DNA of 49,773 nucleotides, taken from a phage. The stretch is taken from the sequence record PZ715804.1; one strand, written 5' to 3'. Below are positions 12,728-28,772 of the stretch, in pieces. The stretch's first letter is position 1, and every line of letters starts with the position of its first letter. The notes under the pieces are model-generated. The model was not told where the DNA came from. It ran no database searches and worked only from the letters and a program-made list of their open reading frames with translations. A program made the position numbers and the translations under genes.

Positions 12728-12904
12728 ATGAAACGAGTTAAATGCATCCGAAATGATTCCAAAACGCTTCCATTCCGCGTAAATCAGATCTATAGTGTTG
12801 GTTATGATTTCGGTGGTGGATTGTTTGAGGTTTACGATGGTAGAGGTTCAACAATCCAAGCTCCCCTGAACGGTCATTACCTGGAATTTATTGAGCTAGA
12901 TTAA
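12728..12904 (+). CDS. small hypothetical protein (MKxxKC small-domain family)
   Basis: 58 aa, not in track; ATG behind AGAGGG RBS and cassette 12658-12698; followed by terminator. Confidence 0.4.
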   Translation: MKRVKCIRNDSKTLPFRVNQIYSVGYDFGGGLFEVYDGRGSTIQAPLNGHYLEFIELD

Positions 12905-12926
12905 CAATATCATTCATAACCTTACG

Positions 12927-12956
12927 GGCTGGCATGGTTTACATGCTGGCCTTTTT
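12927..12956 (+). terminator. intrinsic terminator upstream of the lysis cassette
   Basis: Stem with G-U wobbles around CATG palindrome then TTTTT. Confidence 0.5.
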
Positions 12957-13021
12957 GCGTTGTATCAAGTAAATTTGAAGGTTAAAATCAACTCACTTGT
13001 TCAAAAATATATGGTGAGATT

Positions 13022-13237
13022 ATGAAAGAATTTTTAACAGCGGCTACGTCAAGCACGGGTGGTGCTTCGTTGGTGGGGGCGGCGACAGGGCAGCTTTATA
13101 TTGCTGGCGCTACATTCATTTGCTTTCTGCTTTTTGGTGCATGGGGCGCATACTGGAAGTATCGTGATAGTAAGGCAATTCAGGAAGCGTTAAACGATGG
13201 CGATCTAAATAAGGCGCTTAAGATTAGGGGGATATAA
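13022..13237 (+). CDS. putative holin
   Basis: 71 aa; hydrophobic segment [21 protein letters not shown] then charged tail; directly precedes endolysin. Confidence 0.55.
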
Positions 13238-13725
13238 TGAGTTTAAAAAATAACGTTATAGGCGCATCGATCGGGGCCGCTTTGACGTTGACGCCTACCC
13301 TACTGGAACGAATCGAAGGTATAGAGTACGAGGTGTATTACGATATCGCCGGAGTACCTACCGTATGCAGCGGAATAACCGGGCCTGACGTAATACCTGG
13401 TAAGAAATACACTAAGCGAGAATGCGATGCATTGCTGATAAAACATATCGGAGTCGCTCAGCGATACGTTGACAAAAAGGTAAATGTTGATATTCCTGTA
13501 ACGATGCGCGCGTCACTGTACAGCTTCACTTTCAACGTCGGTACTGGCGCGTTCGGATCTTCTACAATGCTTAAGCTAATAAATCAGAGTAAGCACAAGG
13601 AAGCGTGCAATCAGTTATGGCGATGGGTATACTACTACAACCCAAAAACCAAAAAGCGCGAAGTGTCTAGAGGACTAAAGAACCGACGCGCTGAAGAATA
13701 CGCGTATTGCGTTAAGGAATTATGA
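13237..13725 (+). CDS. SAR endolysin (GH24 lysozyme, R21-like)
   Basis: 162 aa; N-terminal signal-anchor-release segment [17 protein letters not shown]; catalytic E-x8-D-x5-T ([16 protein letters not shown]); [13 protein letters not shown]. Confidence 0.9.
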
Positions 13726-14126
13726 TGAAACTGAAGAAAACGTGCATTGCGATTGCAGTGGCTGTTGGCGTTATTTCCCTATCCGGTTGTTCGACGGCAT
13801 CTGCCCTGAGCGGTTTAATCGGATCTAAACCGGAAGTTACAGCACAAATCGGAGAGGAGAACACAAAGCAATTAGCAGGAGTAACCGCAAAATCCGAAGA
13901 TAAGCGAGATGTTAAAGTTGAGAAGTCCAATGTAGGAAAGATTGACTCTTCCTTGAAGAAGTCAATTGAAGTGTCAACCATTAAGGCTAACACGGTTAAC
14001 GCTGAAAGCATCACAGTAACAAAACCGGAAAACTGGTACGATGCTATCGTTGGCTGGATTCTCGTTTTTATCGGTCTATTGCTGGTTTATTTTTCACTCC
14101 GTAAGGACGAAAAAAAGGAGGCTTAG
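13722..14126 (+). CDS. unimolecular spanin (T1 gp11-type)
   Basis: 134 aa; N-terminal lipoprotein signal with lipobox LSGC and C-terminal transmembrane helix [15 protein letters not shown]. Confidence 0.75.
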
Positions 14127-14141
14127 CCTCCTTTGTTATTT
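14111..14141. terminator. bidirectional terminator between spanin gene and leftward genes
   Basis: Perfect palindrome AGGAGGC-TTA-GCCTCCT flanked by A-run and T-rich run. Confidence 0.7.
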
Positions 14142-14336
14142 GTACCTTTTTACGTTAAGTAGTAACTCCCCATCCTGGTCGCAAAGATTATGCTCGCTTT
14201 CGTTACTGGCCCTCATTGAAGTGAGCAACAGACTCAACAACCCTTGCTCAAATTCTTCTTTCGTAAGCTGGAGCCTTGCGCACAATTCGACGTTCCGATC
14301 TATCAATGTTTCTACGTTCTCCAAACAAATCCTCAT
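14136..14336 (-). CDS. hypothetical small protein
   Basis: ORF track; GGAGAG RBS before ATG; overlaps 3' end of next ORF in another frame. Confidence 0.3.
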   Translation of the reverse strand: MRICLENVETLIDRNVELCARLQLTKEEFEQGLLSLLLTSMRASNESEHNLCDQDGELLLNVKRYK

Positions 14337-14655
14337 CACTCATCTCTCCAATGTGCATCATTTCCCACGTATACCGATTGTTGTAGCCATCAATACACAT
14401 CAGCTTCATCATTACCGGGCGCTTAATCTTTCCCTTGCACCAGTAAAACCCATCCCTGCAATCAAGATAACCCTCAGTTACACAGCGTGAGCAAAACTCC
14501 TTAGATAGCGCGCTTGTAAATTCACGGCGAGTCATTCCTGCGGCCTTAGCAAATCGCTCACTTTCCTTGTGGGCGTATATAAATTTCGCTATGTGCTGTC
14601 GAGTGTATTTGTCGTAACCTTCGCAGAACCTGAACAGATCTAAAAGAAGAAGCAT
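14248..14655 (-). CDS. hypothetical Cys-rich protein
   Basis: 135 aa; FCSRCVTEGYLDCRDGFYWC cluster suggests metal binding. Confidence 0.45.
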   Translation of the reverse strand: MLLLLDLFRFCEGYDKYTRQHIAKFIYAHKESERFAKAAGMTRREFTSALSKEFCSRCVTEGYLDCRDGFYWCKGKIKRPVMMKLMCIDGYNNRYTWEMMHIGEMSDEDLFGERRNIDRSERRIVRKAPAYERRI

Positions 14656-14659
14656 ATTA

Positions 14660-16228
14660 TTAACCCATCAGTCGAGGGTTGATGAAAACAATATCATCAA
14701 TCCGGCAAGTGTAGTTCATCTCTTCGAGCGTGATCAGCAGGCTGTCGATTCGCTCAGATACTTTCTGTTGACCGTTGAACGGCGTAACGTTCCGGCACTT
14801 TGCAACGATGCTATGAATAGGTGCGCGGCCTTTGTTCTTCTTCGCGATCTCAGTGATAACATCAATCAGCTTACGAGATTCAGCCTCATCACCTGCATAC
14901 CCGGCAGCGCTGGCAGATGACAGATAAGTCCTGGAAAGCTCATTAAAAATCATGATTGCTTCCTGCATTGTTTCAAGATCTATCTCACGATTGGAACGGT
15001 TCGGTGATTCACCCTCCCAATTCTTGATCGTGTGGAGAACTGAAGCAATACGCAAGGCGTGCTTATCGAACTTGCCGAGATGACCGCGTAGCATTGAGTG
15101 AGAGTATTTCCCACCTGCGGAGAAATCCGGTTCCATCGCCTGACGCGCAAGGTTTAATTCACGCATAGCATTACGACTAACAGATAGAACAACGTTTTCC
15201 TCCTTCATAATGTTGTGCACGAGTCGATAATATTTACTCACCAATCCTCGATCGACTTCCTTATACAGCGCATCACCATTTTCATCGCAAAGGATACGAG
15301 TACCTAAAAGCGGCTCCTCACGAACTAAAAGGAAGCGCTCAGACACACCGATACCTCGCTGGCCTGCGTCCATGATACCCTTGATTGTTTCATCCTGCGC
15401 AATAACGCAGATTGAACCGACCGGGCAAAGGGACAAGTTGTTATCCTGGTTGGAACGCGCGACCTCCATATGGTTTTTATCCCACGCCTTAAGGATAAGC
15501 TCGCTGTTTGATTTCTTATCTGAACCGCCATACGTAAGCCCGAGCAATGTATTGATTGCCGTTGCCTCGTCAGATATTACGGAGAAGTGACCTTGCACTG
15601 CCGCCACCTTCGCTAGACCTTCAGGTGTAGGATCTGATACCGCGAAAACAATATCAGCCATCTTCTTGATCTTTTCTTCCAGTTTTTCCTTGTCTTCGTA
15701 CAGCGCCGCCGTCGTGTTACCCTTCGGATCGTTTTTGATTTCTTTCTCGACCTGACGTAGCTGACTGGTTAAACGGATGCGTTCCTTTTTGCGCTCTTCA
15801 TTCAGTCGCTGAATCTCTGCGCGCATAGGAGTTATCGCCGCTGAGTTAATAGCGGACTTACCTGTTGATGGTGGCTGGCTGATTACCATGTAAAGCGCGG
15901 TCGGCTGTTCTTCGCCGTGATATTGCACCCAAAACTTCCCGAGCATCGCGGCTGAGATGCACCCAATGAAATGAGCGTACGCAGACGAAACCGGAAACTG
16001 TACAGACTCAGCCTTTGCCTTTGCATATTCGAATACCAGGTTATCGCCACCTAACGAAATCAGCGGGAACTTATCGTTTCCACTGTTGATATCGATCGGA
16101 TCTTGCCAAAACGAAACTGAATCCCCATAGCTGTTTTCACGAATTGCGATCGCCACCGGATTAACTCCAGTGCTATTTGCGATCTCAATAATCTGTTGGT
16201 AATTCAATTTTGGCTTAATATTAAACAT
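14660..16228 (-). CDS. P-loop NTPase, DUF3987-like (primase/helicase-associated)
   Basis: About 522 aa from ATG (or GTG 16231) behind AAGGAG RBS; Walker A-like PPSTGKS; driven by minus-strand cassette 16258-16302. Confidence 0.45.
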   Translation of the reverse strand: MFNIKPKLNYQQIIEIANSTGVNPVAIAIRENSYGDSVSFWQDPIDINSGNDKFPLISLGGDNLVFEYAKAKAESVQFPVSSAYAHFIGCISAAMLGKFWVQYHGEEQPTALYMVISQPPSTGKSAINSAAITPMRAEIQRLNEERKKERIRLTSQLRQVEKEIKNDPKGNTTAALYEDKEKLEEKIKKMADIVFAVSDPTPEGLAKVAAVQGHFSVISDEATAINTLLGLTYGGSDKKSNSELILKAWDKNHMEVARSNQDNNLSLCPVGSICVIAQDETIKGIMDAGQRGIGVSERFLLVREEPLLGTRILCDENGDALYKEVDRGLVSKYYRLVHNIMKEENVVLSVSRNAMRELNLARQAMEPDFSAGGKYSHSMLRGHLGKFDKHALRIASVLHTIKNWEGESPNRSNREIDLETMQEAIMIFNELSRTYLSSASAAGYAGDEAESRKLIDVITEIAKKNKGRAPIHSIVAKCRNVTPFNGQQKVSERIDSLLITLEEMNYTCRIDDIVFINPRLMG

Positions 16229-16257
16229 CACAATAAACTCCTTAGTTGACGGCGTGA

Positions 16258-16302
16258 ATGATACACCGTCAATGGTACACGCGTTTTGCAAAAAGTGCTA
16301 TT
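16258..16302 (-). promoter_or_regulatory. motif-spacer-(-10)-hairpin cassette (minus strand) upstream of the DUF3987-like ATPase gene
   Basis: Minus-strand reading TAGCACTTTTTGCAAAAC, 22 nt spacer, TATCAT. Confidence 0.5.
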
Positions 16303-16304
16303 GG

Positions 16305-16721
16305 TTATAAGTATTTGGCCTCAAAGGTTGTGCCGTCTGCGATACTAAAACCCACCTCTTCGCGGAATAAGGTCCAGCGGCAACCGTCCTCATCAAAGAT
16401 GTAACCAGCTACGCCACCGAGAGCGCGACCGCTTTCAACCTGGTAACGCTTTCCAACCTTGAATGATTTTTTCATCGTGTTGCGATGGTCAAGCCCGGTG
16501 CATTTAAGCGTTTTTGTTTTTAACTCGGTGAACTTCGCGAAGAAGATTTCATCAGATCCGTGAATCTGTAATTCATCATGCTCTTCAAGTTTTAAATACT
16601 TCCCGCATTTTAACTTTACTTCGCGAGTGCCATCATAGCGCTCACGACCTTTATACAGATTGTTTACTTCGAATCCTGTGATTTTGTCTGCTGAAGTGCA
16701 TTTAAGTTTAATGGTTTTCAT
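16305..16721 (-). CDS. hypothetical protein with internal repeats of the MKxxKC small-domain type
   Basis: 138 aa; AGGAG RBS within CCAATCAGGAG context; repeats IKLKCTSADKITGFEVNNLYKG and LKCTGLDHR...VGKRYQV. Confidence 0.5.
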   Translation of the reverse strand: MKTIKLKCTSADKITGFEVNNLYKGRERYDGTREVKLKCGKYLKLEEHDELQIHGSDEIFFAKFTELKTKTLKCTGLDHRNTMKKSFKVGKRYQVESGRALGGVAGYIFDEDGCRWTLFREEVGFSIADGTTFEAKYL

Positions 16722-16801
16722 TGCGTTCGCTCCTGATTGGTTATCTTGAATAAGGTCACTTTATCAAATGACCTTACGGCAATATTAACAAATCGTGCTA
16801 T

Positions 16802-17011
16802 TTACCAGGGAATATAATCATCAATGTCCTCATTGATATCATCACCAGGTAACTTAAAGTTAGGATCATATTCGCTTTCAGCATCCATATCCATATCACC
16901 AATAGCCTCATCAAGTGTTATTTCTTTATATGCGACCTTGATGCACCACTCGGCACTAAGCCCGACATCAAGTGCTGCAAAATAACGAGTCCAGAAATTA
17001 TCTTGTTCCAT
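16802..17011 (-). CDS. small highly acidic protein with SSB-C-tail-like terminus
   Basis: 69 aa; about 28 percent Asp/Glu; ends DDINEDIDDYIPW; GGAG RBS. Confidence 0.5.
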   Translation of the reverse strand: MEQDNFWTRYFAALDVGLSAEWCIKVAYKEITLDEAIGDMDMDAESEYDPNFKLPGDDINEDIDDYIPW

Positions 17012-17014
17012 TAA

Positions 17015-17239
17015 TTAGCTCCACGAATTAATGTAAATCGAGTTAGCCTCAAGCGTTGCACGAACGTCCGCATCTGTTGCATTTATCAGTCGAGGGCCTG
17101 GCACGCTTCCGATAACACTATTTCCGTTACGTGTCTTAGTTACCGTCATTGAAATAAAGCCTGAAGACTTATCCATTTTCACAACTACACGGCCTTTTGC
17201 GTTCAAGTGCTTGATGATATTCTCAACTTTAATGCTCAT
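17015..17239 (-). CDS. hypothetical protein
   Basis: 74 aa; AAAGGA RBS. Confidence 0.5.
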   Translation of the reverse strand: MSIKVENIIKHLNAKGRVVVKMDKSSGFISMTVTKTRNGNSVIGSVPGPRLINATDADVRATLEANSIYINSWS

Positions 17240-17455
17240 TTTAATTCCTTTGTTTCGTTTGGTGTGGGAGTAATATACCTCACTCCCTGGTGTGTGTCTT
17301 TAGCAATTTGTGCTATCAGTACTCAGAAATTACTTTGCACTCTTTGATTGTTCCTCCTAGCACTGATTTCTGCATCATTGCTTTTTGGCGACTATCGTAA
17401 ACGCGAACATTTTTTACGCTATTAAACTTGCCTGTATAAAAGGTGTGAACATAAA

Positions 17456-17776
17456 TCATTTTTTACCGTCCCATGTTTGATATGCCGTAACCAGGTTAAT
17501 GCTATGGTCGAACTCGTCAACGCTAAGCGATCCAATTCGAACAAGCTCCTTGTTGTGCTTAATGTCAATCATCAGGCTGTATGGATGACCTGGCACGTAT
17601 TTAAATAGACGCTTGCTGTCGGCAATGTCTGCGTTGATTCCGTAGAATCGGCCTACTGCCGCCTTAACGCGCTCCATGATGTTTTTTTCGTGGATTGCCG
17701 CCGCGTTATTCAGTGCCGCAACCGTGCTTCCGTTAATCTTCGGTGACTTCGTTGTGATTTTGTAAGTGTGGTTCAT
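17456..17776 (-). CDS. hypothetical protein
   Basis: Start at internal Met (MNHTYK) behind AGGGGGA RBS. Confidence 0.5.
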   Translation of the reverse strand: MNHTYKITTKSPKINGSTVAALNNAAAIHEKNIMERVKAAVGRFYGINADIADSKRLFKYVPGHPYSLMIDIKHNKELVRIGSLSVDEFDHSINLVTAYQTWDGKK

Positions 17777-17792
17777 TATTCCCCCTAACCAG

Positions 17793-17993
17793 TCAGGATA
17801 GCTTTCGAGCTTCATCAATGATAACAGGCTCAAGGCGTTCAAGTCGAACGCGGAACGTGTTCATAAATCCATCGTTATTCTTCAATAACTCGAAAGCGTC
17901 CGTAGCTTCAATGGCGCTACTACCCATGTAAGAGATCACGCGCTTCTGTGTCTTTCGTGAGATCGCCACCACTCGGTAAATGTTATCGCTCAT
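17793..17993 (-). CDS. hypothetical protein
   Basis: Start at internal Met (MSDNIY) behind AAGGAGG RBS. Confidence 0.45.
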   Translation of the reverse strand: MSDNIYRVVAISRKTQKRVISYMGSSAIEATDAFELLKNNDGFMNTFRVRLERLEPVIIDEARKLS

Positions 17994-18357
17994 ACAATGC
18001 CTCCTTAACACGGTCCGCAATGCAGGAGTTGACGGTGATTGAATAGTTAGCCACGCCCCACAATGCGACGTTTCCAAGCTCTGTACGCATAGATGGGTTA
18101 TTTAGCTGGATGATTGTCTCGCCAGTATCGTTATCGACGAAACGAGATGCGCCAGAACGGTCCACCACGCGCGTTACGCGGTTAACACACTCCATTGCAT
18201 CACTTACACCGTAATAAGAGCTTAGAGCGGCTCTCACGGCTTTCTCTTGCTTGTTGTAAATCTTGCGCGCAATGTTCTCGATCGCTACGTTCTCTTTCTC
18301 GTCAGTCTGGATTGCTGTGCTTGCTGAGAAGTCCAGGTCTACGAATTGTTTAAACAT
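17983..18357 (-). CDS. hypothetical protein
   Basis: 124 aa; GAGGAAAG RBS; downstream of minus-strand cassette 18389-18433. Confidence 0.5.
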   Translation of the reverse strand: MFKQFVDLDFSASTAIQTDEKENVAIENIARKIYNKQEKAVRAALSSYYGVSDAMECVNRVTRVVDRSGASRFVDNDTGETIIQLNNPSMRTELGNVALWGVANYSITVNSCIADRVKEALYER

Positions 18358-18388
18358 GATTCTTTCCTCATTTGCTGTTGATGGGATG

Positions 18389-18433
18389 ACTATACCAGCC
18401 CTCCCGCATTTTCGTTTAGCAAAAAGTGCTATT
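18389..18433 (-). promoter_or_regulatory. motif-spacer-(-10) cassette (minus strand)
   Basis: Minus-strand reading TAGCACTTTTTGCTAAAC, 22 nt spacer, TATAGT; then GAGGAAAG RBS. Confidence 0.5.
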
Positions 18434-18618
18434 TAGAATTTTACATCTTCAACAAGCTCAACCATTTTGTAACCAAGTCGATAGGAGTCACCGAACAACA
18501 ACAGACCCATAAATTCATCGTTGGTTATTGACTCCTTGCCAACAGTTTTAAGCTCTCCGTTGTGAATCACAGTATCGCCGATCTTGATTTCTGATTTATG
18601 AACTAATTTTGTTTTCAT
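18433..18618 (-). CDS. hypothetical protein
   Basis: 61 aa; weak RBS; stop lies inside a motif copy. Confidence 0.4.
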   Translation of the reverse strand: MKTKLVHKSEIKIGDTVIHNGELKTVGKESITNDEFMGLLLFGDSYRLGYKMVELVEDVKF

Positions 18619-18633
18619 TTACTGGCCTGTTAA

Positions 18634-18819
18634 TTAGAAGAAAGATACGTAGTTTGCAATACCTTTAGCGTCGTCGTTAGGCATTGCTTTGACAGCAAGA
18701 TCATAACCAGCCTCGACCTTCTGCTTTGCTGACTCTTCGTTGTATCCCCAAATAACCAGGATCTTAACTACGTTTTCTTTGTTCAGAACTTTAAGGTCTT
18801 TAGTGATGCGACGTGCCAT
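18634..18819 (-). CDS. hypothetical protein
   Basis: Start at internal Met (MARRITK) behind GAGGAA RBS; downstream of cassette 18853-18898. Confidence 0.45.
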   Translation of the reverse strand: MARRITKDLKVLNKENVVKILVIWGYNEESAKQKVEAGYDLAVKAMPNDDAKGIANYVSFF

Positions 18820-18852
18820 TTTGTTTTTCCTCAATCTCGTTTCGATGAGGTA

Positions 18853-18898
18853 ATTATGCCAAATCACACCGATCGAGTTTTAACAAAAAGTGCTATTT
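18853..18898 (-). promoter_or_regulatory. motif-spacer-(-10) cassette (minus strand)
   Basis: Minus-strand reading TAGCACTTTTTGTTAAAAC, 22 nt spacer, CATAAT; motif also encodes the Dcm-like C-terminus. Confidence 0.5.
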
Positions 18899-19584
18899 GC
18901 GATTGCTTTAAAAAATCCCCTGGGCGACAGGGATCGTATCAGCTTAGTTTTGGCAGACTTGCCGCCTAGCTTACTGTGCTGTGCAGAGTACCCGTCAGGT
19001 AGGCTTACAGGTTTTCTCTCGGGCATGACAAAATCGTCAGAGGTCCAAAGGCAAGTTTTCTTCGGGTAAGCATCGCGCGGCGCAATATACATCGGGAACC
19101 AGGGGTGTGAGTCATTCTCAGGAAGATAGCCGCCATACTCCCAGGGATTGAAGGAGTGATTTGGTTTTCTCCAGGCAGATGACAGGACGCTAACCGGATT
19201 CTCAATGATGTAAGTCACGCCCAGGGCGTCGCCAATATTTGCAGCAATCCGGGCGGTGGCAACAGCCTTCTCCTGGAATAACGGATCGCGTTCACGCTTT
19301 CTTGCGAAGTGAGCGGCACCACTAACAGCCAGGTCAGTGCACGGAGGGAAAGCCATAATGAAATCCGGCTTGCCATACACGCCAGCGATAGCATCACGCT
19401 CAAACGCTGCGTCAATGAACACGTTCACATACTCAATGTTCTGATGCTCCACTCTGGCATTGCACTTTGCATAATCCCCGTGATCGGCTCCGTCAAAGTT
19501 GAAGCACATCACCTTGTGACCTTGCTTAGCCAGTTCATGACCTGCAAGGCCGGAACCGTCGAATAGCGACCAGATTAATTTCAT
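18880..19584 (-). CDS. dcm: DNA cytosine-5 methyltransferase-like protein (short, Dcm-like)
   Basis: 234 aa; motif I LFDGSGLAG, motif IV FPPCTDLAVSG, ENV-like IIENPV; C-terminus ...ANSTFC* is encoded by the repeated motif. Confidence 0.6.
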   Translation of the reverse strand: MKLIWSLFDGSGLAGHELAKQGHKVMCFNFDGADHGDYAKCNARVEHQNIEYVNVFIDAAFERDAIAGVYGKPDFIMAFPPCTDLAVSGAAHFARKRERDPLFQEKAVATARIAANIGDALGVTYIIENPVSVLSSAWRKPNHSFNPWEYGGYLPENDSHPWFPMYIAPRDAYPKKTCLWTSDDFVMPERKPVSLPDGYSAQHSKLGGKSAKTKLIRSLSPRGFFKAIANSTFC

Positions 19585-19616
19585 TGCAAATATCCTCTGA
19601 TTGGTTGATGTGATGA

Positions 19617-19662
19617 ATCATACCCTGCCAGCCTGACCAAATCGTTAGCAAAAAATGCTATT
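19617..19662 (-). promoter_or_regulatory. motif-spacer-(-10) cassette (minus strand) upstream of the Dcm-like gene
   Basis: Minus-strand reading TAGCATTTTTTGCTAAC, 22-23 nt spacer, TATGAT; then CCAATCAGAGGA RBS. Confidence 0.45.
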
Positions 19663-21103: not shown

Positions 21104-21298
21104 ATGGAAACGCAAATTGACGTAGTGGTTGTTCAGCGCGATTCAACTCACGAAAATGGTCTGTTCAAGAAAGGAACCGAAATCACGATCGACATTGAGG
21201 ATATGGTGGCGTATCACTCAGGTCTTACCTGGAACGTGGTGCGCGTTGGCAGCGACTACAAACTCAAAGGCTTTAACACTTACTTTGCGGAGGCTTAA
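21104..21298 (+). CDS. hypothetical protein
   Basis: 64 aa from ATG behind GAGGAAACG RBS, downstream of cassette 21029-21071. Confidence 0.5.
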   Translation: METQIDVVVVQRDSTHENGLFKKGTEITIDIEDMVAYHSGLTWNVVRVGSDYKLKGFNTYFAEA

Positions 21299-21300
21299 TT

Positions 21301-22080: not shown

Positions 22081-22086
22081 ATAATC

Positions 22087-22314: not shown

Positions 22315-22421
22315 ACTTCAATACAATAGCGCTATGGTCTGCCGTCTGGTTCTTCTGCATGGGTCACGTCATGGTCGGCATCGCGGTAATGCTTCTCCTG
22401 TGTGCGGGGGCGTTCGAATGA
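22311..22421 (+). CDS. small hydrophobic membrane peptide
   Basis: 36 aa (MNFNTIALWSAVWFFCMGHVMVGIAVMLLLCAGAFE), not in track; GAGG RBS; start overlaps previous stop. Confidence 0.35.
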   Translation: MNFNTIALWSAVWFFCMGHVMVGIAVMLLLCAGAFE

Positions 22422-22591
22422 TGCGGATTCTGATTTGCATGATGGCAGCGGTAGCTCTTGCTATCCTGTTAGTGTCAGGCTGCGTAGAGGTAAAAGATAG
22501 ATGCCACAAGACCGGAGGCCAGGTTACTACGTTTGTGATGGTTGGCAACGTTTTGCTACCAATCACATCAAATGAGATCACTTGCGAATAG
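22418..22591 (+). CDS. small lipoprotein
   Basis: 57 aa from internal Met; signal MMRILICMMAAVALAILLVSGC with lipobox LVSGC. Confidence 0.45.
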   Translation: MMRILICMMAAVALAILLVSGCVEVKDRCHKTGGQVTTFVMVGNVLLPITSNEITCE

Positions 22592-22600
22592 GATGTTAAA

Positions 22601-22792
22601 ATGGCTGATTTTATGCACCAAATGATTGCAGTATTCAAAGGTAGTGATGACCAGGAAGTGAAAGAGTGCTTTACCGTTGACAAGCCTTATAACGCGTCAC
22701 TAACCAGCTTCGGGAATATCTCATTGCTTGATGATAATGGCGATCCCTGGATATTCGATGAAGATACGGATTGCTTCGAAATTAAAGAATAG
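22601..22792 (+). CDS. small acidic hypothetical protein
   Basis: 63 aa; stop TAG is the first triplet of a motif copy. Confidence 0.45.
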   Translation: MADFMHQMIAVFKGSDDQEVKECFTVDKPYNASLTSFGNISLLDDNGDPWIFDEDTDCFEIKE

Positions 22793-22838
22793 CACTTTTT
22801 GTTAAAACGCGTTCATGGGGTTGCGATATAGTAACCCC
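22790..22838 (+). promoter_or_regulatory. motif-spacer-(-10)-hairpin cassette
   Basis: TAGCACTTTTTGTTAAAAC, 22 nt spacer, TATAGT in hairpin GGGGTT...AACCCC. Confidence 0.55.
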
Positions 22839-22863
22839 ATCAACAACGAAACGAGGATTTACC

Positions 22864-23070
22864 ATGAAGCTGCGATGCATTGAATCAAATCAGATTAACT
22901 ATCATGAAGGATTTGAATACATGGCTCAAATCGATAGCTTTGTCAACAAAAACGGAGAGGTTATTGATGTGGTTCATGGAGTGTATACGTGGTTCTACTT
23001 TGACAAGAAAGCGCTAACGGCCACTAAGCGTAATGGTGATGTAGTTGCTAAATTTAAACGTGAACAGTGA
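22864..23070 (+). CDS. small hypothetical protein (MKxxKC small-domain family)
   Basis: 68 aa (MKLRCIESNQINYHEGFEY...). Confidence 0.5.
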   Translation: MKLRCIESNQINYHEGFEYMAQIDSFVNKNGEVIDVVHGVYTWFYFDKKALTATKRNGDVVAKFKREQ

Positions 23071-23081
23071 GGATTGAAATC

Positions 23082-23570
23082 ATGAAAATTAAATTACTTT
23101 GCACTGGCGGTTACAAAGGATTTACTCGCGACCTGGAAGCCGACCCAATTATCGTTGACGCGGTGAAGTGCGATGATAGCCTGGGAGGCTACCGCGTCAA
23201 GGTCGATGACCTGGTTAAAGCTGGCGTGTACGATCTGGATTACGGCTTGCGAGTTATCCCTGAAGTTGGCCCGGCAGACTTTAACGAGAAAGACGGAACG
23301 ATGTTCTTTTTTGATTGGGAAGTTCAAGAGAACGTCAAGCCTCGTAAGGTTCGACTTCTCAACAATGGCGGCTACCCGATGAGACCAGGTTATGAGAATC
23401 GCACGTTCCCAGTTATTGTGGACTTCACCGAAATCACTAACAACCTTGTCTACGTTAGCCATGAGCAACTTAAGGCTGTTGGATTTGTTGGTGGCATGCA
23501 TAAAGAAGCGCTTTGCTTCGTTCGAGAAGAAATGCACGGTTACTATTCTGAGTGTGAGCTAGTCTACTAA
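23082..23570 (+). CDS. hypothetical protein (N-terminal MKxxKC-type domain)
   Basis: Start at internal Met (MKIKLLCTGGYKGF) behind GAGGA RBS. Confidence 0.5.
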   Translation: MKIKLLCTGGYKGFTRDLEADPIIVDAVKCDDSLGGYRVKVDDLVKAGVYDLDYGLRVIPEVGPADFNEKDGTMFFFDWEVQENVKPRKVRLLNNGGYPMRPGYENRTFPVIVDFTEITNNLVYVSHEQLKAVGFVGGMHKEALCFVREEMHGYYSECELVY

Positions 23571-23615
23571 GCACGAATTGTTAAAAGGGGATTTGGCCTG
23601 ACTGGTATAATCCCC
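23570..23615 (+). promoter_or_regulatory. motif-spacer-(-10)-hairpin cassette
   Basis: AGCACGAATTGTTAAAAG, 22 nt spacer, TATAAT in hairpin GGGGATT...AATCCCC. Confidence 0.55.
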
Positions 23616-23641
23616 ACATAAACCACTAAGAGGAAGTCATT

Positions 23642-24127
23642 ATGTTGAAATTAAACGAGATTAAATTCCCTGTAGTTTTTAACACTATTAGCTGTGGAAA
23701 AATAACCTGCCATAGCAAAGACCGTGCAACAGATTCGTCATTCAATGAGTGCCATCCGTCTATCGTTGGTAATCTCATTGAGCTTCATAACAATCACAAC
23801 CCTGATAACATCCCATCCCTTCCATATTATGTTGAGTATGTTGGTCCTGGCTGGAAAGCTGGCCGAGCAATCTTTCATAGCGCAAAGCCAGAAATCAAGC
23901 CAATACTACAATGTACTCAGATCGAGAACATGCCAGTTAGCGCGACGCTAAAGGGAGTCCAGCTTGATGATAAATCCTGGCTTGAAATCACCGCCACACC
24001 GAAGACGATCGAGGTGCATGACGATATTATTACGTTGTTATTGCATTACGGTGGATTTAAGCACAAGACTGTATCAGGTGAAATCAGCATCAAGCGCGGA
24101 ACGCTTGTACGCTATGAGGTGAAATAA
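23642..24127 (+). CDS. hypothetical protein
   Basis: 161 aa; AAGAGGAAG RBS. Confidence 0.5.
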   Translation: MLKLNEIKFPVVFNTISCGKITCHSKDRATDSSFNECHPSIVGNLIELHNNHNPDNIPSLPYYVEYVGPGWKAGRAIFHSAKPEIKPILQCTQIENMPVSATLKGVQLDDKSWLEITATPKTIEVHDDIITLLLHYGGFKHKTVSGEISIKRGTLVRYEVK

Positions 24128-24276
24128 TGGCTGCATGGGTTTTGATTATCTTGATGAGTACCGGGCCGGATCACGTATACATGGAAAGCCAACAATCATG
24201 CAATAAGGCACGGGAAGTTATCGCAGAGAATAAGCCGTTCGGGTACGAAGTAAAAACAATGTGCGTTAAACGATAG
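24127..24276 (+). CDS. small hypothetical protein
   Basis: 49 aa, not in track; start overlaps previous stop; stop TAG begins a motif copy. Confidence 0.3.
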   Translation: MAAWVLIILMSTGPDHVYMESQQSCNKAREVIAENKPFGYEVKTMCVKR

Positions 24277-24320
24277 CACGAATTGCTAAACCTTCCGAAA
24301 GGCCATTTGTTATAATGGCC
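24274..24320 (+). promoter_or_regulatory. motif-spacer-(-10)-hairpin cassette
   Basis: TAGCACGAATTGCTAAAC, 22 nt spacer, TATAAT in hairpin GGCCAT...ATGGCC. Confidence 0.55.
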
Positions 24321-24356
24321 TTATTGAAGCAAGGCAACCAATCAGAGGAATAGGAT

Positions 24357-24560
24357 ATGGCTACACGACTCACTCAATGGCAGATTTACGACAAGGCATC
24401 GCGCCTACGTTAATCACTTCGTGGACTGACGCCGAATGACCGAATGGAGATTATCGGGCACGCATTGCACGAACTCACGCCGCCGGACGTAACCTATCAC
24501 TCATGCGGAAACAAGTTTTGGAACGTGACATTCGAGGTAAAGAAAGATGAGCAAAACTCA
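24357..24560 (+). pseudogene. ORF interrupted by a single in-frame TAA (18 codons, stop at 24411-24413, then 49 further sense codons in the same frame)
   Basis: ATG behind cassette 24274-24320 and ACCAATCAGAGGA RBS; reading frame continues open after the TAA to 24560. Confidence 0.3.
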
Positions 24561-24834
24561 TAAGTTAAAAATCGCCCCGGTACATTTCATCGGAGTAATG
24601 AACGGAACCAAAACGGCAGAGTTCCGCATCAATGACCGCAACTTCCAGCCTGGCGATATCCTGGAGCTATGCGAGTTCGATCGTGACGAGTTTACCGGGT
24701 GGGAAGTACACGCCAGGGTATCAGATGTTACCGATGTGACTCCGTACATCAATCGCTGGTATGACGACAAAGAATGTGACTTCACGCAATACGTGATGTT
24801 ATCAATCAAGCCTTACAGGAAGATTAGACCATGA
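24547..24834 (+). CDS. ASCH-like / DUF3850-like small protein
   Basis: 95 aa; pattern HKLKIAPVHFIGVMNGTKTAEFRINDRNFQPGDIL recalled as DUF3850-type. Confidence 0.5.
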   Translation: MSKTHKLKIAPVHFIGVMNGTKTAEFRINDRNFQPGDILELCEFDRDEFTGWEVHARVSDVTDVTPYINRWYDDKECDFTQYVMLSIKPYRKIRP

Positions 24835-25469
24835 AATTTGAATGCGTATCGAGTAGTGGATCGGGCTTTAAGTGGGGCAGGGTGTACGAAGGCGCTAGAG
24901 TGAATGATGACAGCTTCGTTATTGTTGATGAGCACGGTTGCAACGTGAATGTTGTCCGGCTCCACGAATATCAGGAAATTTTTCTGCCGTATTGCAATAG
25001 TTCAAAATACATCGTCCATCGAATCGTGTATGGTGTTAAATTTAACGACGTAATCGAAGCAATCAACCAACTGCATAATAAAGAGGTAAAATTTATGAAA
25101 TTCGAATGTATCAGCGATAACACCAAAAAATTCACTGTTGGCAAAATCTACGATGTGCCTACTGAGCACGCAAAGCACACTGTAGCGCTTACTGACGACA
25201 CGGGCCGTCACCGCATTGCAACCGTAACTCACAATGGTGAAGGTCTTCGCTGGAATAGCGGCGGCACTAAGTTTGCAACGTTCGGCAAGAAGCGTAAGCG
25301 CACTTTTTGCGTAAATGGCAAGGTTGCAGCAAACAAGATCCACAACGTCAAGCCGTCGGAAGTTGACCGTAAGCCAGCAATGAAGTTTGAAGAGAAAGCA
25401 GATTTGTCTGGTCTGGCTATCGCTCTTGTTCTCCTGGTCGCTTCTATTTCGCTGATGTTCATCATGTAA
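24831..25469 (+). CDS. membrane-anchored protein with two tandem MKFEC-type small domains and C-terminal transmembrane helix
   Basis: 212 aa; internal repeat MKFECVSSSGSGFKWGRVYEG / MKFECISDNTKKFTVGKIYDV; C-terminal LAIALVLLVASISLMFIM. Confidence 0.5.
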   Translation: MKFECVSSSGSGFKWGRVYEGARVNDDSFVIVDEHGCNVNVVRLHEYQEIFLPYCNSSKYIVHRIVYGVKFNDVIEAINQLHNKEVKFMKFECISDNTKKFTVGKIYDVPTEHAKHTVALTDDTGRHRIATVTHNGEGLRWNSGGTKFATFGKKRKRTFCVNGKVAANKIHNVKPSEVDRKPAMKFEEKADLSGLAIALVLLVASISLMFIM

Positions 25470-25476
25470 TGTTAAC

Positions 25477-25510
25477 GGGGAATCGGCTCTGAACGGTTCC
25501 CCTTTCTTTT
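25477..25510 (+). terminator. terminator-like hairpin plus T-run fused to the following RBS
   Basis: GGGGAA...TTCCCC then TTTCTTTT then GGAG. Confidence 0.45.
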
Positions 25511-25522
25511 GGAGAAAATTCT

Positions 25523-25633
25523 ATGCCAGACTTTTCTAACTGGAATAACGAGCCGCCATCATTTCAGGAGTTGCTATTCTGCCTCCTGGTTCTGACAATA
25601 TCTCTTAAGGGTGTTTTATGGCTACTATCATGA
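25523..25633 (+). CDS. small hydrophobic peptide
   Basis: 36 aa, not in track; ATG behind terminator-like hairpin plus GGAG RBS. Confidence 0.3.
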   Translation: MPDFSNWNNEPPSFQELLFCLLVLTISLKGVLWLLS

Positions 25634-25836
25634 CAACGGAAGATGCAGCGCGTGACGCAGTGGAAGGGATGCGCCCAAATACCTCCAGAATCGCACACTA
25701 CTACAATTTTGACGTGTCGGCAGTGCAACTGGTCCATGAAATTTTAAGGCTTCCACAAGTCGATTCAGCGCGCGTGGTGACGTGCTTAAAAAATTATTTT
25801 TGCATCACTATTAAAACGAATAGCACGAATTGCTAA
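25618..25836 (+). CDS. hypothetical protein
   Basis: 72 aa; C-terminus ...TNSTNC* read through the repeated motif. Confidence 0.4.
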   Translation: MATIMTTEDAARDAVEGMRPNTSRIAHYYNFDVSAVQLVHEILRLPQVDSARVVTCLKNYFCITIKTNSTNC

Positions 25837-25868
25837 AACCTATCAAGGGGAATGCGCTATGATTCCCC
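25821..25868 (+). promoter_or_regulatory. motif-spacer-(-10)-hairpin cassette
   Basis: TAGCACGAATTGCTAAAAC, 22 nt spacer, TATGAT in hairpin GGGGAAT...ATTCCCC. Confidence 0.55.
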
Positions 25869-25893
25869 TACACCAAAAAACGAGGGAACACTC

Positions 25894-26340
25894 ATGAAAC
25901 ATTTGATTTGCATTGAAACGCCTAACGATGAATACACCCTGCACGGCATCGGAATGTTCAAAGGTCACTACATGACAGCAAGCATTTATGATGCGCGTCG
26001 CGGCGATGGCGATCTGATGATTAACTCAAAAGAGGTTAATCCGTACATCATGCAGAATCTTGGAAATAACGAATATATGGCCTACGGCTGCAATGCGGTG
26101 TACAAGAATATCAAGATCCGCAAGCGCGTCGTGCGAGCATTCAAGAAGATTGCAATGAAATACTGGAAAATGAGCAAGAAAGATGCCGGACGTTGGGCGC
26201 GCAACGTTGCAGATTCATACTTCTATCGTAACGGCGAATCCTGCTACTTTCTGATCGATGAGCTTATGGAAAACTACGGTGGCGACTTCAGTCAGGGTAG
26301 CTTTGACGCCTGGGCTGACTACGAGGTCGATTACTGGTAA
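25894..26340 (+). CDS. hypothetical protein
   Basis: Start at internal Met (MKHLICIET) behind GAGGGAA RBS, downstream of cassette 25821-25868. Confidence 0.5.
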   Translation: MKHLICIETPNDEYTLHGIGMFKGHYMTASIYDARRGDGDLMINSKEVNPYIMQNLGNNEYMAYGCNAVYKNIKIRKRVVRAFKKIAMKYWKMSKKDAGRWARNVADSYFYRNGESCYFLIDELMENYGGDFSQGSFDAWADYEVDYW

Positions 26341-26387
26341 TAGCACGAATTGCTAAAACTTGCTCAAGGGCATTTGATAGAATGCCC
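26341..26387 (+). promoter_or_regulatory. motif-spacer-(-10)-hairpin cassette
   Basis: TAGCACGAATTGCTAAAAC, 22 nt spacer, TAGAAT in hairpin GGGCAT...ATGCCC. Confidence 0.55.
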
Positions 26388-26423
26388 TTCGTTGAGTTAA
26401 GCAACCAATCAGAGGAATAAATC

Positions 26424-27035
26424 ATGGATAAAATTACCATTTGGGGCCAGACAATCAACCTGTTTCTCGGCACGCGCCGCGTAGCAATCTTTGACTTTGA
26501 TGGAACACTTAGCGATGGATCTGGTCGACTTCACCTGCTACCTACAAAGGATTTGCACTTAACTGAAAGCTGGTCCGAGTTTAACCGCGCGGCAATATTT
26601 GACAACCCTATCCAAAGCACGATCGATGTGATGAACTCTATGTATGCCGCTGGTCATCATGTGATCATTTTAACCGGGCGAAGTGATGAGGTGCGTTACG
26701 CATCTGAGTTGTGGCTTAAGCATCACGGCGCTCGATATGATTACCTGATTATGCGACCATACACCGATAACCGGAAAGACACAGTAATGAAAGAAGAGGC
26801 GGTGCGCGCGATCGGCATTGATAACATTCTGGCGGCCTGGGATGACTCACCGCAAATTATTCCATTATTCCGCTCACTTGGAATAACCACTTACGCTGTA
26901 GTTGACTATGGCGATAAAGTTCACGATCATTTAAAATCTCACGGGGTAGATGAGGTTTGCAATCATGAACCATCTGAGCCGCTACCGCCATTTGGTGAGA
27001 AAATTTGCATTAAGTGCAAGGAGTTATTGAAGTGA
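26424..27035 (+). CDS. HAD-superfamily phosphatase
   Basis: 203 aa; motif I DFDGTLSDG; ACCAATCAGAGGA RBS context. Confidence 0.65.
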   Translation: MDKITIWGQTINLFLGTRRVAIFDFDGTLSDGSGRLHLLPTKDLHLTESWSEFNRAAIFDNPIQSTIDVMNSMYAAGHHVIILTGRSDEVRYASELWLKHHGARYDYLIMRPYTDNRKDTVMKEEAVRAIGIDNILAAWDDSPQIIPLFRSLGITTYAVVDYGDKVHDHLKSHGVDEVCNHEPSEPLPPFGEKICIKCKELLK

Positions 27036-27143
27036 ACCTATACGAATTTATTGCAGCACATCCGGTACTAACAGTTATCATTCTGTTAATCATAAACTCC
27101 ACCATCATCAATGTGGCGAAATTATTTTTAGGGAGATACTGAC

Positions 27144-27716
27144 ATGAAAACAGCTATCATTTTAAACGGTGCGCCTGGCGCGGGAAAAGACACTATAGGG
27201 TGCATCCTGGCTGACACTTACGATCATGTAGCGCTACGCAGCTTTAAAGCTCCAATGTTTGAGATTGCCCGAGCAATCCTGGGTGAGACTAATTTTGAGT
27301 ATTTCATGTTCTTGTATGAGGACCGTCGCTATAAAGAAGAGCCAGCATCAATCCTGAACGGTAAAAGCCCGCGCCAGTTTATGATCTGGATTAGCGAGGA
27401 GGTTATCAAGCCGCAGTTCGGAAATCGCTTCTTCGGTATGCGAGCGGAAAGCAAGGTGAAAGAGTCTCACTCCCTTTCGGTATTTACTGACGGTGGATTC
27501 AAAGACGAAATCTTGCAGATGATTGAAGGTGAAATCCAGGTCAAGCTATGTCGAATCCATCGCAACGGTTGCAACTTTGACAACGACAGTCGCGACTACA
27601 TCTATCTTGACGATATGATCGGGGTCAACGGTTATCAGGAATGTGACTTCTTCTCTGTCGAAGGTCATCCAGAAATTACCGCTCAGCACATAGCCGCCAC
27701 GTTCATCAACAAATAG
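27144..27716 (+). CDS. P-loop kinase (nucleotide or polynucleotide kinase-like)
   Basis: 190 aa; Walker A GAPGAGKDT at N-terminus; stop TAG begins a motif copy. Confidence 0.6.
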   Translation: MKTAIILNGAPGAGKDTIGCILADTYDHVALRSFKAPMFEIARAILGETNFEYFMFLYEDRRYKEEPASILNGKSPRQFMIWISEEVIKPQFGNRFFGMRAESKVKESHSLSVFTDGGFKDEILQMIEGEIQVKLCRIHRNGCNFDNDSRDYIYLDDMIGVNGYQECDFFSVEGHPEITAQHIAATFINK

Positions 27717-27762
27717 CACGAATTGCTAAAACGTCGGTGGGGTGACTTGATATAGTTACCTC
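27714..27762 (+). promoter_or_regulatory. motif-spacer-(-10)-hairpin cassette
   Basis: TAGCACGAATTGCTAAAAC, 22 nt spacer, TATAGT in imperfect hairpin. Confidence 0.55.
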
Positions 27763-27788
27763 ATCGACAACGAAGAGAGAAAATCGAA

Positions 27789-27998
27789 ATGATGGTATCA
27801 ACTGACAAGTTTTTCACTTGCACTAAAACTTCTGAAGTATTCGAACTGGTTCATACTGATAATGGTGACTTCATGCATGACGGTTGCGACGTTTTCATTG
27901 AAGTGAAAGAAAGCGACTATGACTATGGGGTTTATTATAACCCGGCAGTGAACACTCAGTTTTTTACACCGATCGAAGAGGAAGGAGAAGAAGCATGA
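27789..27998 (+). CDS. hypothetical protein
   Basis: 69 aa; downstream of cassette 27714-27762. Confidence 0.45.
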   Translation: MMVSTDKFFTCTKTSEVFELVHTDNGDFMHDGCDVFIEVKESDYDYGVYYNPAVNTQFFTPIEEEGEEA

Positions 27999-28339
27999 TC
28001 ACGATTAACCTGTCAGATAAACAAGCGCGTGAAATCCTCGATACTATCGGCGAACAGCTTCACGTAAAAGGCGCTACCGCTGAGATTCTTAACCAGATCG
28101 AAAGACAGCTAACCCCGGTGTCGACGAATCAGGCTGAGTTCTCAATCTGGAAAAGCGAGCGAATCCTGCCAAATATCATCAAGGCATGGAAGCGCAAGAA
28201 TAAAAAAGAAATCAATGTTGATGACTTATTTTCTGATGAATTAAGTCCTTCAAAGGTTGCTCAATATCAGTTGCGATACATGGAATCAGTTTGCAATCAG
28301 GTTTTAAATGTCAACTTTTCATTCGGGAGTGGTAAATAA
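27995..28339 (+). CDS. hypothetical protein
   Basis: 114 aa; start overlaps previous stop. Confidence 0.5.
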   Translation: MITINLSDKQAREILDTIGEQLHVKGATAEILNQIERQLTPVSTNQAEFSIWKSERILPNIIKAWKRKNKKEINVDDLFSDELSPSKVAQYQLRYMESVCNQVLNVNFSFGSGK

Positions 28340-28569
28340 TGTTTGGTTTAAGTGAAGCGGAATGGAACGTGGTAAAGCGCGCGGCGAAGGAATTGAATAA
28401 ATTCGTTAGCGGAATGAAGAAAGAAGATCGCAAAAACGAAAAGATTATGATTGATGTGATCTCAACTCATCACAAAAAGGTTGAGCTACTCATCGACCGC
28501 TACAAGTTTGTATGGGCCGCCGGATATATTGCAGGGCGCGTAGGTAACAAAGAGGGTGATTACGAATAA
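28339..28569 (+). CDS. hypothetical protein
   Basis: 76 aa; start overlaps previous stop. Confidence 0.45.
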   Translation: MFGLSEAEWNVVKRAAKELNKFVSGMKKEDRKNEKIMIDVISTHHKKVELLIDRYKFVWAAGYIAGRVGNKEGDYE

Positions 28570-28772
28570 TGGCTAACTTACCGAAGAAAGGCGATCAGGT
28601 TCGATGTGTTACATCACGCAATGGTGATGCTTTCTCAGCGGGATGCTTGTATGACGTTGAAAAAGTAAGTAAAGCAAAGAGACTCGTATTTGTATACGGA
28701 GACGATGGAAATATTCATGAGATTGACTACCCGCAGGATATTACTAAGGGCCAATTTGAAATTAATGATTGA
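28569..28772 (+). CDS. small hypothetical protein (MKxxKC-like small domain)
   Basis: 67 aa; segment QVRCVTSRNGDAFSAGCLYDV. Confidence 0.45.
   Translation: MANLPKKGDQVRCVTSRNGDAFSAGCLYDVEKVSKAKRLVFVYGDDGNIHEIDYPQDITKGQFEIND

Follow-up and report, generated by a model that had tools for sequence, protein, structure and literature searches.

The DNA analysed here, the whole 49,773-nucleotide stretch of sequence record PZ715804.1 ("the window"), is the genome of a Tunavirus (T1-like) coliphage, with 90-92% nucleotide identity to tunaviruses. About half of the genes in T1-like phages carry no annotation. A preliminary description of the window proposed that at least six of its ORFs share a small domain, and all of the ORFs it named are real, being annotated CDSs in close relatives. 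As judged from sequence, six small proteins in the window contain eight mutually homologous copies of one domain of about 60 residues. The proposed membership held for the ORFs at 12728, 16305-16721, 22864, 24831-25469 and 28569; the ORF at 23082 proved not to belong, and a further member, at 22601-22792, had been overlooked.

The first protein, p12728 (12728 to 12904, plus strand; 58 aa; phrog_4788), is a single domain whose gene lies between those for a DNA-repair exonuclease and a holin. The second, p16721, is encoded on the minus strand at 16305-16721, directly upstream of a helicase gene in the same strand cluster, and holds two copies, as had been proposed: D2a (residues 1-68; 16518 to 16721) at the N-terminus and D2b (residues 69-138; 16308 to 16517) at the C-terminus. 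D2b is kept across Drexlerviridae, and its orthologues include Bas11 gp48 and T1 ST7. The overlooked protein, p22601 (22601 to 22792, plus strand; 63 aa; phrog_11551), is acidic and lacks the cysteine of strand 1. Close by is p22864 (22864 to 23070, plus strand; 68 aa), a single-domain protein whose gene is accessory and found at just 3 of the 17 related loci. The longest of the six, p24831 (plus strand), was correctly described as two copies followed by a transmembrane anchor. Its first copy, D5a (residues 1-88; 24831 to 25094), ends in a short helix and is absent from phage T1, where the orthologue is 124 aa; the second, D5b (residues 89-152; 25095 to 25286), has six strands and retains a Shine-Dalgarno sequence and an ATG (at 25095) of its own. 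In the remainder (residues 153-212; 25287 to 25469), a basic linker (KKRKR..., pI 10.3) leads to a transmembrane helix at the C-terminus (192-211), a predicted tail anchor whose hydrophobic stretch is conserved in 26 homologues. The p24831 gene overlaps the stop of a gene for an ASCH-domain (RNA-binding-like) protein. The last member, p28569 (28569 to 28772, plus strand; 67 aa; phrog_4927), is again a single domain. By profile search there are eight copies in the window, five in T1, five in Bas11 and none in lambda.

The family signature is K-V-x-C-[ITV] ... [FLW]-T-x-G-K-x-Y-x-V ... D-D-x-G ... F-E-x-V, so that the conserved residues fall in four separate motifs running from the strand-1 Cys to the C-terminal F-E-x-V. 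Across 74 independent copies of the domain, 89% have the Cys, 99% the Tyr and 92% the Gly of DDxG, and conservation thus extends beyond an initial MK and a single Cys. Conservation is highest in two of the motifs, the N-terminal strand with K-x-[KRE]-C-[IVT] and the segment F..G..Y.V, the same two on which the preliminary description was based. When the window copies are aligned to the family HMM, the Tyr is found in all eight and the Cys in seven, p22601 being the exception.

Homology among the copies

The paralogues diverged anciently, and pairwise identity among them is 20-27%. BLAST comparisons between copies were insignificant save for D5a against D5b, and hhalign comparison of shallow orthologue profiles likewise linked only these two, with every other pair below 20% probability. 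Shallow profiles are uninformative here because the close tunavirus orthologues are too similar to one another; homologue searches with p24831 and p23082 found only relatives at 57-94% identity.

We therefore relied on an HMM built only from metagenomic proteins without BLAST similarity to the window. Because it was seeded from matches of a profile that contained window sequences, this HMM is not fully independent of the window. It gave E-values of 1.7e-10 for D5b, 3.8e-9 for p28569, 4.9e-8 for D5a, 7.3e-8 for D2b, 1.2e-7 for p22601, 4.9e-5 for p12728, 1.2e-3 for D2a and 5.9e-3 for p22864. The best window ORF outside the eight copies had an E-value of 1.4, reversed sequences reached 0.93 at best and shuffled sequences ranged from 0.087 to 8.5. 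Against the independent members, hhalign gave probabilities of 97% for D5b, 96% each for D2b, D5a and D2a, 95% for p22601, 94.5% for p28569, 91% for p22864 and 88% for p12728, a level reached for all eight once the sub-family alignments of D2a and p22864 had been deepened (p22864 rose from 84%); 12 control small proteins scored 0.1-4.6%. With leave-one-out profiles, four of the five omitted proteins came out top among 861 six-frame ORFs.

Cross-matches to PHROG and Pfam families are independent of the window profile. In PHROG, phrog_14592 is matched by D2b, D5a, D5b and p22601, the last of which, like D5b, also matches phrog_38782; phrog_9122, phrog_4927 and phrog_10169 are common to D5b, p22864 and p28569. 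The first two of these are the PHROGs of p22864 and p28569, respectively, and D5b matches phrog_9122 at 7.5e-5.

That small ORFs without any relationship merely resemble one another at their N-termini, by chance or through composition, as the insignificant BLAST and shallow-profile results might suggest, is scarcely credible for the eight copies given the profile E-values with clean reversed, shuffled and lambda controls, the hhalign probabilities, the conservation over four motifs and the agreeing PHROG and Pfam cross-matches, and we regard it as refuted for them. It holds for p23082 only. The literal motif alone occurs five times in the window against 1.06 expected, a count reached in 4 of 1000 shuffles. 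The p23082 protein (23082 to 23570, plus strand; 162 aa) consists of a different unit, about 80 aa long, duplicated in tandem; it has only MKIKLLC in common with the family (hhalign 0.3-0.7%, HMM E >60), and its PHROG neighbours are families other than those of the domain copies.

Comparison of tunaviruses gave dN/dS of 0.06-0.34 for the genes and 0.05-0.16 for the domains, matching the range in neighbouring genes, and there is no gene-wide signal of positive selection. Values of 0.05-0.34 indicate that the genes are real and constrained, and each paralogue is a stable orthologous group under purifying selection. The suggestion that the module is diversifying is consequently not supported: the orthologues are constrained, the divergence among paralogues is ancient, and one of the supposed copies, 23082, is not a member.

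Database families and predicted fold

A profile search of 1.84 billion representative sequences identified about 59 small or medium-sized proteins with one to six full-length copies, and two to six copies are often arrayed in tandem in other phages. About half of the matches in this search were giant repeat proteins aligning only at a DDxG-like stretch (profile positions ~28-46), and these were discarded. A Pfam scan of 40 retrieved proteins assigned 12 to DUF7244, six to DUF6501 and two to SH3_1. Pfam catches the superfamily only in part, as DUF7244 and DUF6501 (SH3 clan), which overlap on one domain because tandem-array proteins often match both. What we have found are thus additional members of known, uncharacterised phage domain families, and the signature and profile add to two Pfam families, both of unknown function, many sequences that these now miss.

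DUF7244, which has been placed in the SH3 clan (PMC13164509), is known from the Drexlerviridae lysis module as a "standalone SH3" (Eremina et al. 2026, PMC13164509). A full-length member is p12728, which matches the whole Pfam PF23896 profile at 98.8 bits (E 1.8e-28; cut-off 27 bits) and belongs to the family published as SH3 (PMC13164509). It is the only window copy above a Pfam cut-off, and NCBIfam recognises none. Two proteins, p16721 (18.4 bits; D2a has an E-value of 0.0023 in whole-protein context) and p24831 (13.8 bits), fall below the DUF7244 gathering cut-off of 27 bits, while p22601, p22864 and p28569 have no DUF7244 match at E up to 10. The other window copies nonetheless have the DUF7244 core signature in common, and proteins retrieved with the window profile pass its threshold; we therefore treat the seven copies besides p12728 as relatives within the superfamily, not as Pfam-defined members. 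For DUF6501 (PF20111, function unknown), tandem-array proteins retrieved by the window profile match at up to 1.8e-20, whereas no window protein matches at E up to 10; we found no literature on this family.

The preliminary description's small beta-rich domain agrees with an AlphaFold model of p24831, the sole member modelled, in which the domains are all-beta with moderate pLDDT of about 76-83. Strands lie at 2-65 and a helix at 71-81 in D5a, and a further helix at 192-211 follows a disordered linker. The domain is predicted to be an SH3-like beta-barrel superposable on SH3-type structures, and the analysis places six of the window's unannotated T1-like genes in one fold family. The domain differs from the eukaryotic-type SH3 domain (Pfam SH3_1) in having six strands in the modelled copy as against five and in showing no sign of a groove for proline-rich peptides.

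The best structural match to the predicted p24831 fold is Gp54 of Bas11 (PDB 9AXB), a non-essential protein that binds directly to the sensor domain of the defence protein CapRelSJ46 and is its direct trigger (Zhang et al. 2024, PMC11578894). Gp54 is the only structurally solved small accessory protein of Drexlerviridae, and its fold has been described as very rare in nature. Both are six-stranded SH3-like barrels, but Gp54 has neither the strand-1 Cys nor the DDxG hairpin. Sequence comparison of Gp54 with the family gave an hhalign probability of about 1%, even with 15 diverse Gp54 homologues, and PDB sequence searches with p24831 and with the family profile did not retrieve 9AXB. Because no link was found at the sequence level, the likeness could reflect convergence on a small barrel.

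Possible functions

We consider the eight diverged copies, in their six non-structural proteins, most likely to be putative cytoplasmic protein-binding modules, a reading to which we assign a probability of roughly 55%. To call the domain a binding module is plausible: the fold is a classic interaction scaffold, the domain occurs in tandem arrays elsewhere, and no catalytic motif is conserved across the family. A cytoplasmic site of action is probable, because the proteins lack signal peptides and each begins with strand 1. Gp54 of Bas11 sets a precedent both for binding of a protein and for detection by an immune sensor. Weighing against this role, nucleic acids or peptidoglycan can also be ligands of SH3-like barrels, the basic p16721 adjoins a helicase gene, and p12728 is conserved beside lysis genes.

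Many SH3-like barrels bind nucleic acids, and the copies might accordingly be nucleic-acid-binding small barrels (KOW, Tudor, Sm or integrase-CTD-like) acting in phage DNA replication, transcription or RNA metabolism. The pI of 9.0 and helicase-adjoining position of p16721, the overlap of the p24831 gene with that of the ASCH-domain protein and weak PDB sequence matches to the KOW-like region of eS4 would fit such a role. Most copies, however, are neutral or acidic (pI 6.5 for p12728, 5.2 for p28569 and 4.1 for p22601), the family alignment shows no conserved basic or aromatic surface motif outside the core signature, and the best structural match, Gp54, binds protein. We judge this role improbable.

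A slightly poorer candidate is a cell-wall-binding or lysis-accessory module resembling the SH3b domains in endolysins of Gram-positive phages. SH3 folds commonly serve to bind cell walls, and a lysis role has been proposed for the DUF7244 copy beside holin, endolysin and spanin; its position, that of p12728, is conserved in 188 Drexlerviridae, and the gene, when present, is always near lysis genes (PMC13164509). Seven of the eight window copies, however, are nowhere near lysis genes; no copy has a signal peptide, a SAR-type N-terminus or an N-terminal hydrophobic segment; p24831 is predicted to be held by a tail anchor, its domains facing the cytoplasm; and no Pfam cell-wall SH3 family (SH3_3, SH3_5 and others) was matched at E up to 10. 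In lysis by a pinholin and a SAR endolysin, moreover, cytoplasmic proteins cannot reach the wall before lysis. This is the T1-type system (PMC13164509), and it argues against a role at the wall. Compared with an endolysin SH3b such as that of Listeria phage PSA, the window copies have in common the general SH3-like barrel and one lysis-adjoining member, but they show no sequence match, export signal or enzyme fusion, and the phage has a Gram-negative host and the pinholin system.

The published account also reported no paralogues of the Drexlerviridae SH3 protein (PMC13164509), while the window contains seven copies without lysis association, two-domain proteins and one membrane anchor. The association appeared exclusive because the DUF7244 cut-off used there was strict (E ≤1e-5, coverage ≥0.5) and misses the paralogues. 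Our results thus qualify the claim that this protein belongs exclusively to the lysis module: it is one of at least eight paralogous copies, the rest lying among DNA-metabolism and small accessory genes.

A role in the virion, as minor proteins or structural decoration, is very unlikely, since the label "virion structural protein" on phrog_14592 is an unverified family annotation reached by weak matches (E 4.6e-6 to 0.05), the genes sit in clusters of small ORFs surrounded by DNA-metabolism genes and well away from the head and tail modules (29.5-49.7 kb), and one protein is predicted to be membrane-anchored.

If the copies are protein-binding modules, the conserved residues would form the barrel core, and the loops, which vary among paralogues, could set binding specificity. 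Each paralogue would be a stand-alone module that binds its own partner, from host or phage, in the course of infection, in host takeover or counter-defence, with p24831 tethered to the inner side of the membrane by its C-terminal anchor behind the KKRKR linker. Abundant small barrels of this kind, like their structural relative Gp54, might in turn be sensed directly by CapRel-type immune proteins. More tentatively, and with the odds clearly against it, a phage-specific Gp54-fold barrel could be a general binder scaffold in Drexlerviridae and in many further phages that have tandem arrays, with paralogues neutralising or redirecting different host or defence factors and CapRel-like sensors having evolved to recognise the fold. 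The family would then be a toolkit against the host and, at the same time, a pathogen-associated pattern, and the "very rare" Gp54 topology a common phage domain.

Should the relationship to Gp54 be real, the copies would offer natural variants for probing recognition by CapRel-type sensors and what small barrels do for the phage. The window also encodes a Gp54 orthologue (21104 to 21298, plus strand; phrog_7421), 60% identical to Bas11 gp54 across 45 aa (E 5e-20), which is a structural relative of the family without sequence-detectable membership (hhalign about 1%). Activation of CapRelSJ46 by a Gp54-type activator needs A7 and I25 (PMC11578894); the window orthologue has V7 and T25.

Membership of the domain family

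The preliminary description listed six ORFs, all annotated as 'hypothetical protein' in tunavirus relatives, as members of one family with an MK-x-x-(K/E)-C start. We split these into nine putative domain segments: D1 (the protein p12728, ORF 12728-12904), D2a and D2b (the two halves of p16721, ORF 16305-16721), D3 (p22864, ORF 22864-23070), D4a and D4b (the two halves of p23082, ORF 23082-23570), D5a and D5b (two copies within p24831, ORF 24831-25469), and D6 (p28569, ORF 28569-28772). Pairwise BLAST among the nine segments found nothing significant except D5a against D5b, which was also the sole link (93%) when hhalign was applied to shallow alignments of the orthologues in 17 related loci. 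The literal N-terminal motif was seen five times, where shuffled proteomes gave an expectation of 1.06 and reached five in 4 of 1,000 shuffles.

In leave-one-out searches, a profile built from the remaining members was run against the window's complete set of 861 six-frame ORFs. Four of the five proteins came out on top when withheld from the profile: p12728 (E = 5e-4), p16721 (its copies at ranks 1 and 2), p24831 (copies at E = 3e-6 and 0.05) and p28569 (E = 2e-3); p22864 reached rank four only. The next-best match of these profiles was repeatedly an ORF absent from the list, 22601-22792 (product p22601).

We also constructed an alignment and HMM from 74 domain copies in 37 proteins that BLAST does not relate to any ORF of the window at E below 1e-4, a set that is not fully independent of the window because it was retrieved by a profile holding window segments. 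Against the six-frame ORFs, this HMM matched D5b (E = 1.7e-10), p28569 (3.8e-9), D5a (4.9e-8), D2b (7.3e-8), p22601 (1.2e-7), p12728 (4.9e-5), D2a (1.2e-3) and p22864 (5.9e-3), and the next-best window ORF scored 1.4. As negative controls, the best reversed sequence had E = 0.93, the best shuffled sequences ranged from 0.087 to 8.5, and phage lambda gave no match (best E = 5.6). When the sub-families were compared with the independent alignment by hhalign, they scored 88-97% after the p22864 and D2a alignments had been deepened, against 0.1-4.6% for twelve other small window proteins. The 74 copies share the consensus K-V-x-C-[ITV] ... [FLW]-T-x-G-K-x-Y-x-V ... [IVL]-x-D-D-x-G ... F-E-x-V, and conservation extends over all four motifs (Cys 89%, Tyr 99%, Gly 92%), beyond the N-terminal MK and a single Cys.

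Matches to Pfam and PHROG families are independent evidence. Pfam assigns p12728 to DUF7244 (E = 1.8e-28), with D2a (0.0023) and D5b (0.063) as sub-threshold matches. PHROGs place each ORF in a separate family, and weak cross-matches among these form a network: D5b matches phrog_9122, the family of p22864 (7.5e-5), and phrog_4927, that of p28569; phrog_14592 is matched by D2b, D5a, D5b and p22601; and phrog_10169 and phrog_3523 are common to D5b and p28569.

By these sequence comparisons there are eight genuine domain copies in six window proteins, chance resemblance is excluded for all eight, and p22601 is a member overlooked by the preliminary description. Five of the six listed ORFs thus stand as one profile-supported family, including the two internal copies proposed for each of p16721 and p24831, all four of which are matched by the HMM, but the sixth does not: p23082 is not detectable as a member, scoring 0.3-0.7% against the independent alignment. 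Instead, p23082 (23082-23570, + strand) consists of a different unit of about 80 amino acids, duplicated in tandem; both halves match phrog_13367, their matches also include phrog_15322, and none of the family's PHROGs is matched. A natural chimera in the databases, P0095, joins the first half of p23082 to the C-terminal half of the product of the next gene, 23642-24127 (+ strand), with the junction at an I-K-P motif common to both parents.

Divergence and gene content among T1-like phages

The 17-kb region around the domain genes is 90-92% identical in DNA to the tunaviruses (Drexlerviridae) AV106, DELF2, Sfin-1 and LeonhardEuler/Bas13, and the map of phage T1 is a circular permutation of the window. 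The paralogues are only 20-27% identical to one another. The many duplications had suggested a 'diversifying' module, a term that the substitution rates do not bear out: dN/dS is 0.06-0.34 per gene (D5b 0.05, D5a 0.16, D2a and D2b both 0.06), with neighboring genes between 0.007 and 0.33, and we found no gene-wide diversifying selection. Every paralogue corresponds to one stable group of orthologues that evolves under purifying selection.

With the independent HMM, T1 and Bas11 have five copies each. Those of Bas11 (MZ501085.1), to which its Gp54 comes as a further protein, are gp41 (33759-33929), gp48 (37578-37943), gp61 (42369-42554), gp71 (45147-45338) and gp79 (47216-47653); several other small proteins, gp78 and gp80 among them, appear similar by eye and score below threshold. 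T1 lacks D5a, p22601 and p22864. The p22864 gene (22864-23070, + strand) is an accessory gene, present in 3 of 17 related tunavirus loci, where it is inserted between the genes for p22601 and p23082.

Within p24831, the internal Met codon at 25095 is preceded by GAGGTAAAATTT (window 25080-25110, + strand), identical to the ribosome binding site and start of T1 ST68. Because the Shine-Dalgarno sequence and ATG are the same, D5a is best described as a domain added upstream in frame, and the long ORF has the look of an ST68-type gene to which an extra domain has been fused; a 124-residue product may also be made from the start at 25095. Immediately upstream, a small ASCH-domain gene (24547-24834, + strand; RNA-binding-like, phrog_986 in a relative's annotation) overlaps the p24831 start by ATGA, and T1 apparently lacks both this gene and D5a.

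Fold and relation to Gp54

An AlphaFold2 model of p24831, computed with 26 homologues as input, has a mean pLDDT of 62.6, with both domains at about 76-83. In it, two all-beta domains are followed by a basic linker, which is disordered, and by a C-terminal helix (residues 192-211), in agreement with the transmembrane anchor proposed earlier for this ORF. KKRKR precedes this membrane helix, as expected for a tail-anchored protein whose domains lie in the cytoplasm. Foldseek comparison of p24831 with viral models returned chiefly uncharacterised phage proteins, among them 63-72-residue proteins of other T1-like phages (TM 0.69-0.79).

The DUF7244 protein of T1-like phages has been classed independently as a minimal SH3 domain (Eremina et al., PMC13164509). 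Gp54 of phage Bas11 (PDB 9AXB) is a six-stranded barrel with a long strand 1-2 loop, nearest to SH3 domains and of a topology 'very rare in nature' (Zhang et al., PMC11578894). It is non-essential and of unknown function, and it directly binds and activates the toxin-antitoxin defence protein CapRelSJ46 (PMC11578894). D5b is predicted to have six strands, and their spacing fits Gp54, which would make it the Gp54-matching domain of the model. The window also encodes a Gp54 orthologue (21104-21298, + strand; 60% identity over 45 residues, E = 5e-20), which carries V7 and T25 in place of the A7 and I25 needed by the activating protein and therefore is probably not an activator of CapRelSJ46. We found no profile similarity between the family and either this orthologue or a 15-sequence Gp54 alignment (about 1%); the relation is thus at the level of fold only, and could reflect either common descent or convergence.

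The wider family and its probable role

A profile of eight window segments (alignment A2), searched against a set of 1.84 billion protein representatives, gave 114 matches at E <= 1e-3. About half were discarded as false positives, being giant repeat proteins in which a short DDxG-like stretch alone was matched; these are 1000-6000 residues long and match profile positions of about 28-46 many times over short stretches, an artefact of repeat summation. There remained some 59 proteins of small or medium size, each containing between one and six full-length copies, many in tandem arrays (three copies in P0143, four in P0117, five in P0104). They are metagenomic for the most part, one cluster member is labelled Herelleviridae, and the sizes of the contigs are consistent with phages. 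Among 40 of these proteins, Pfam identifies DUF7244 in 12, DUF6501 in 6 and SH3_1 in 2, and most domain copies go undetected. The domain kind is thus already known, as two Pfam families of unknown function and one published copy. What appear to be new are the seven additional diverged copies recognised in this genome, the outline of a broader superfamily and, at the level of predicted structure, the fold match to the CapRel trigger Gp54.

The analysis shows a homologous family of SH3-like barrels, present in multiple copies, under constraint and enriched in T1-like phages. We infer that its proteins would act as cytoplasmic protein-binding modules with paralogue-specific partners, because of the fold, the absence of any conserved catalytic residue, the restriction of conservation to four short core motifs with variable stretches between them, the arrangement in tandem arrays elsewhere among phages, the existence of a tail-anchored form (p24831) and, by analogy, the precedent of Gp54 in binding a host protein. 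The proteins differ widely in charge, from pI 4.1 (p22601) to pI 9.0 (p16721); nucleic-acid binding is possible for p16721, which is basic and whose gene adjoins a helicase gene. For the DUF7244 protein, Eremina et al. inferred a lysis-accessory role from position and reported no paralogues (PMC13164509). A role in cell-wall binding or lysis could apply to p12728 at most; the missing export signal argues against it, as does the position of the seven remaining copies. No family protein of the window has an N-terminal hydrophobic segment. A PHROG label is the sole basis for a virion role.

Two proteins of the wider family, P0121 and P0152, carry four to six domain copies followed by a C-terminal dGTP_diPhyd_N domain (Pfam; dATP/dGTP diphosphohydrolase N-terminal domain), the one fusion to an enzyme domain that the representative search revealed.
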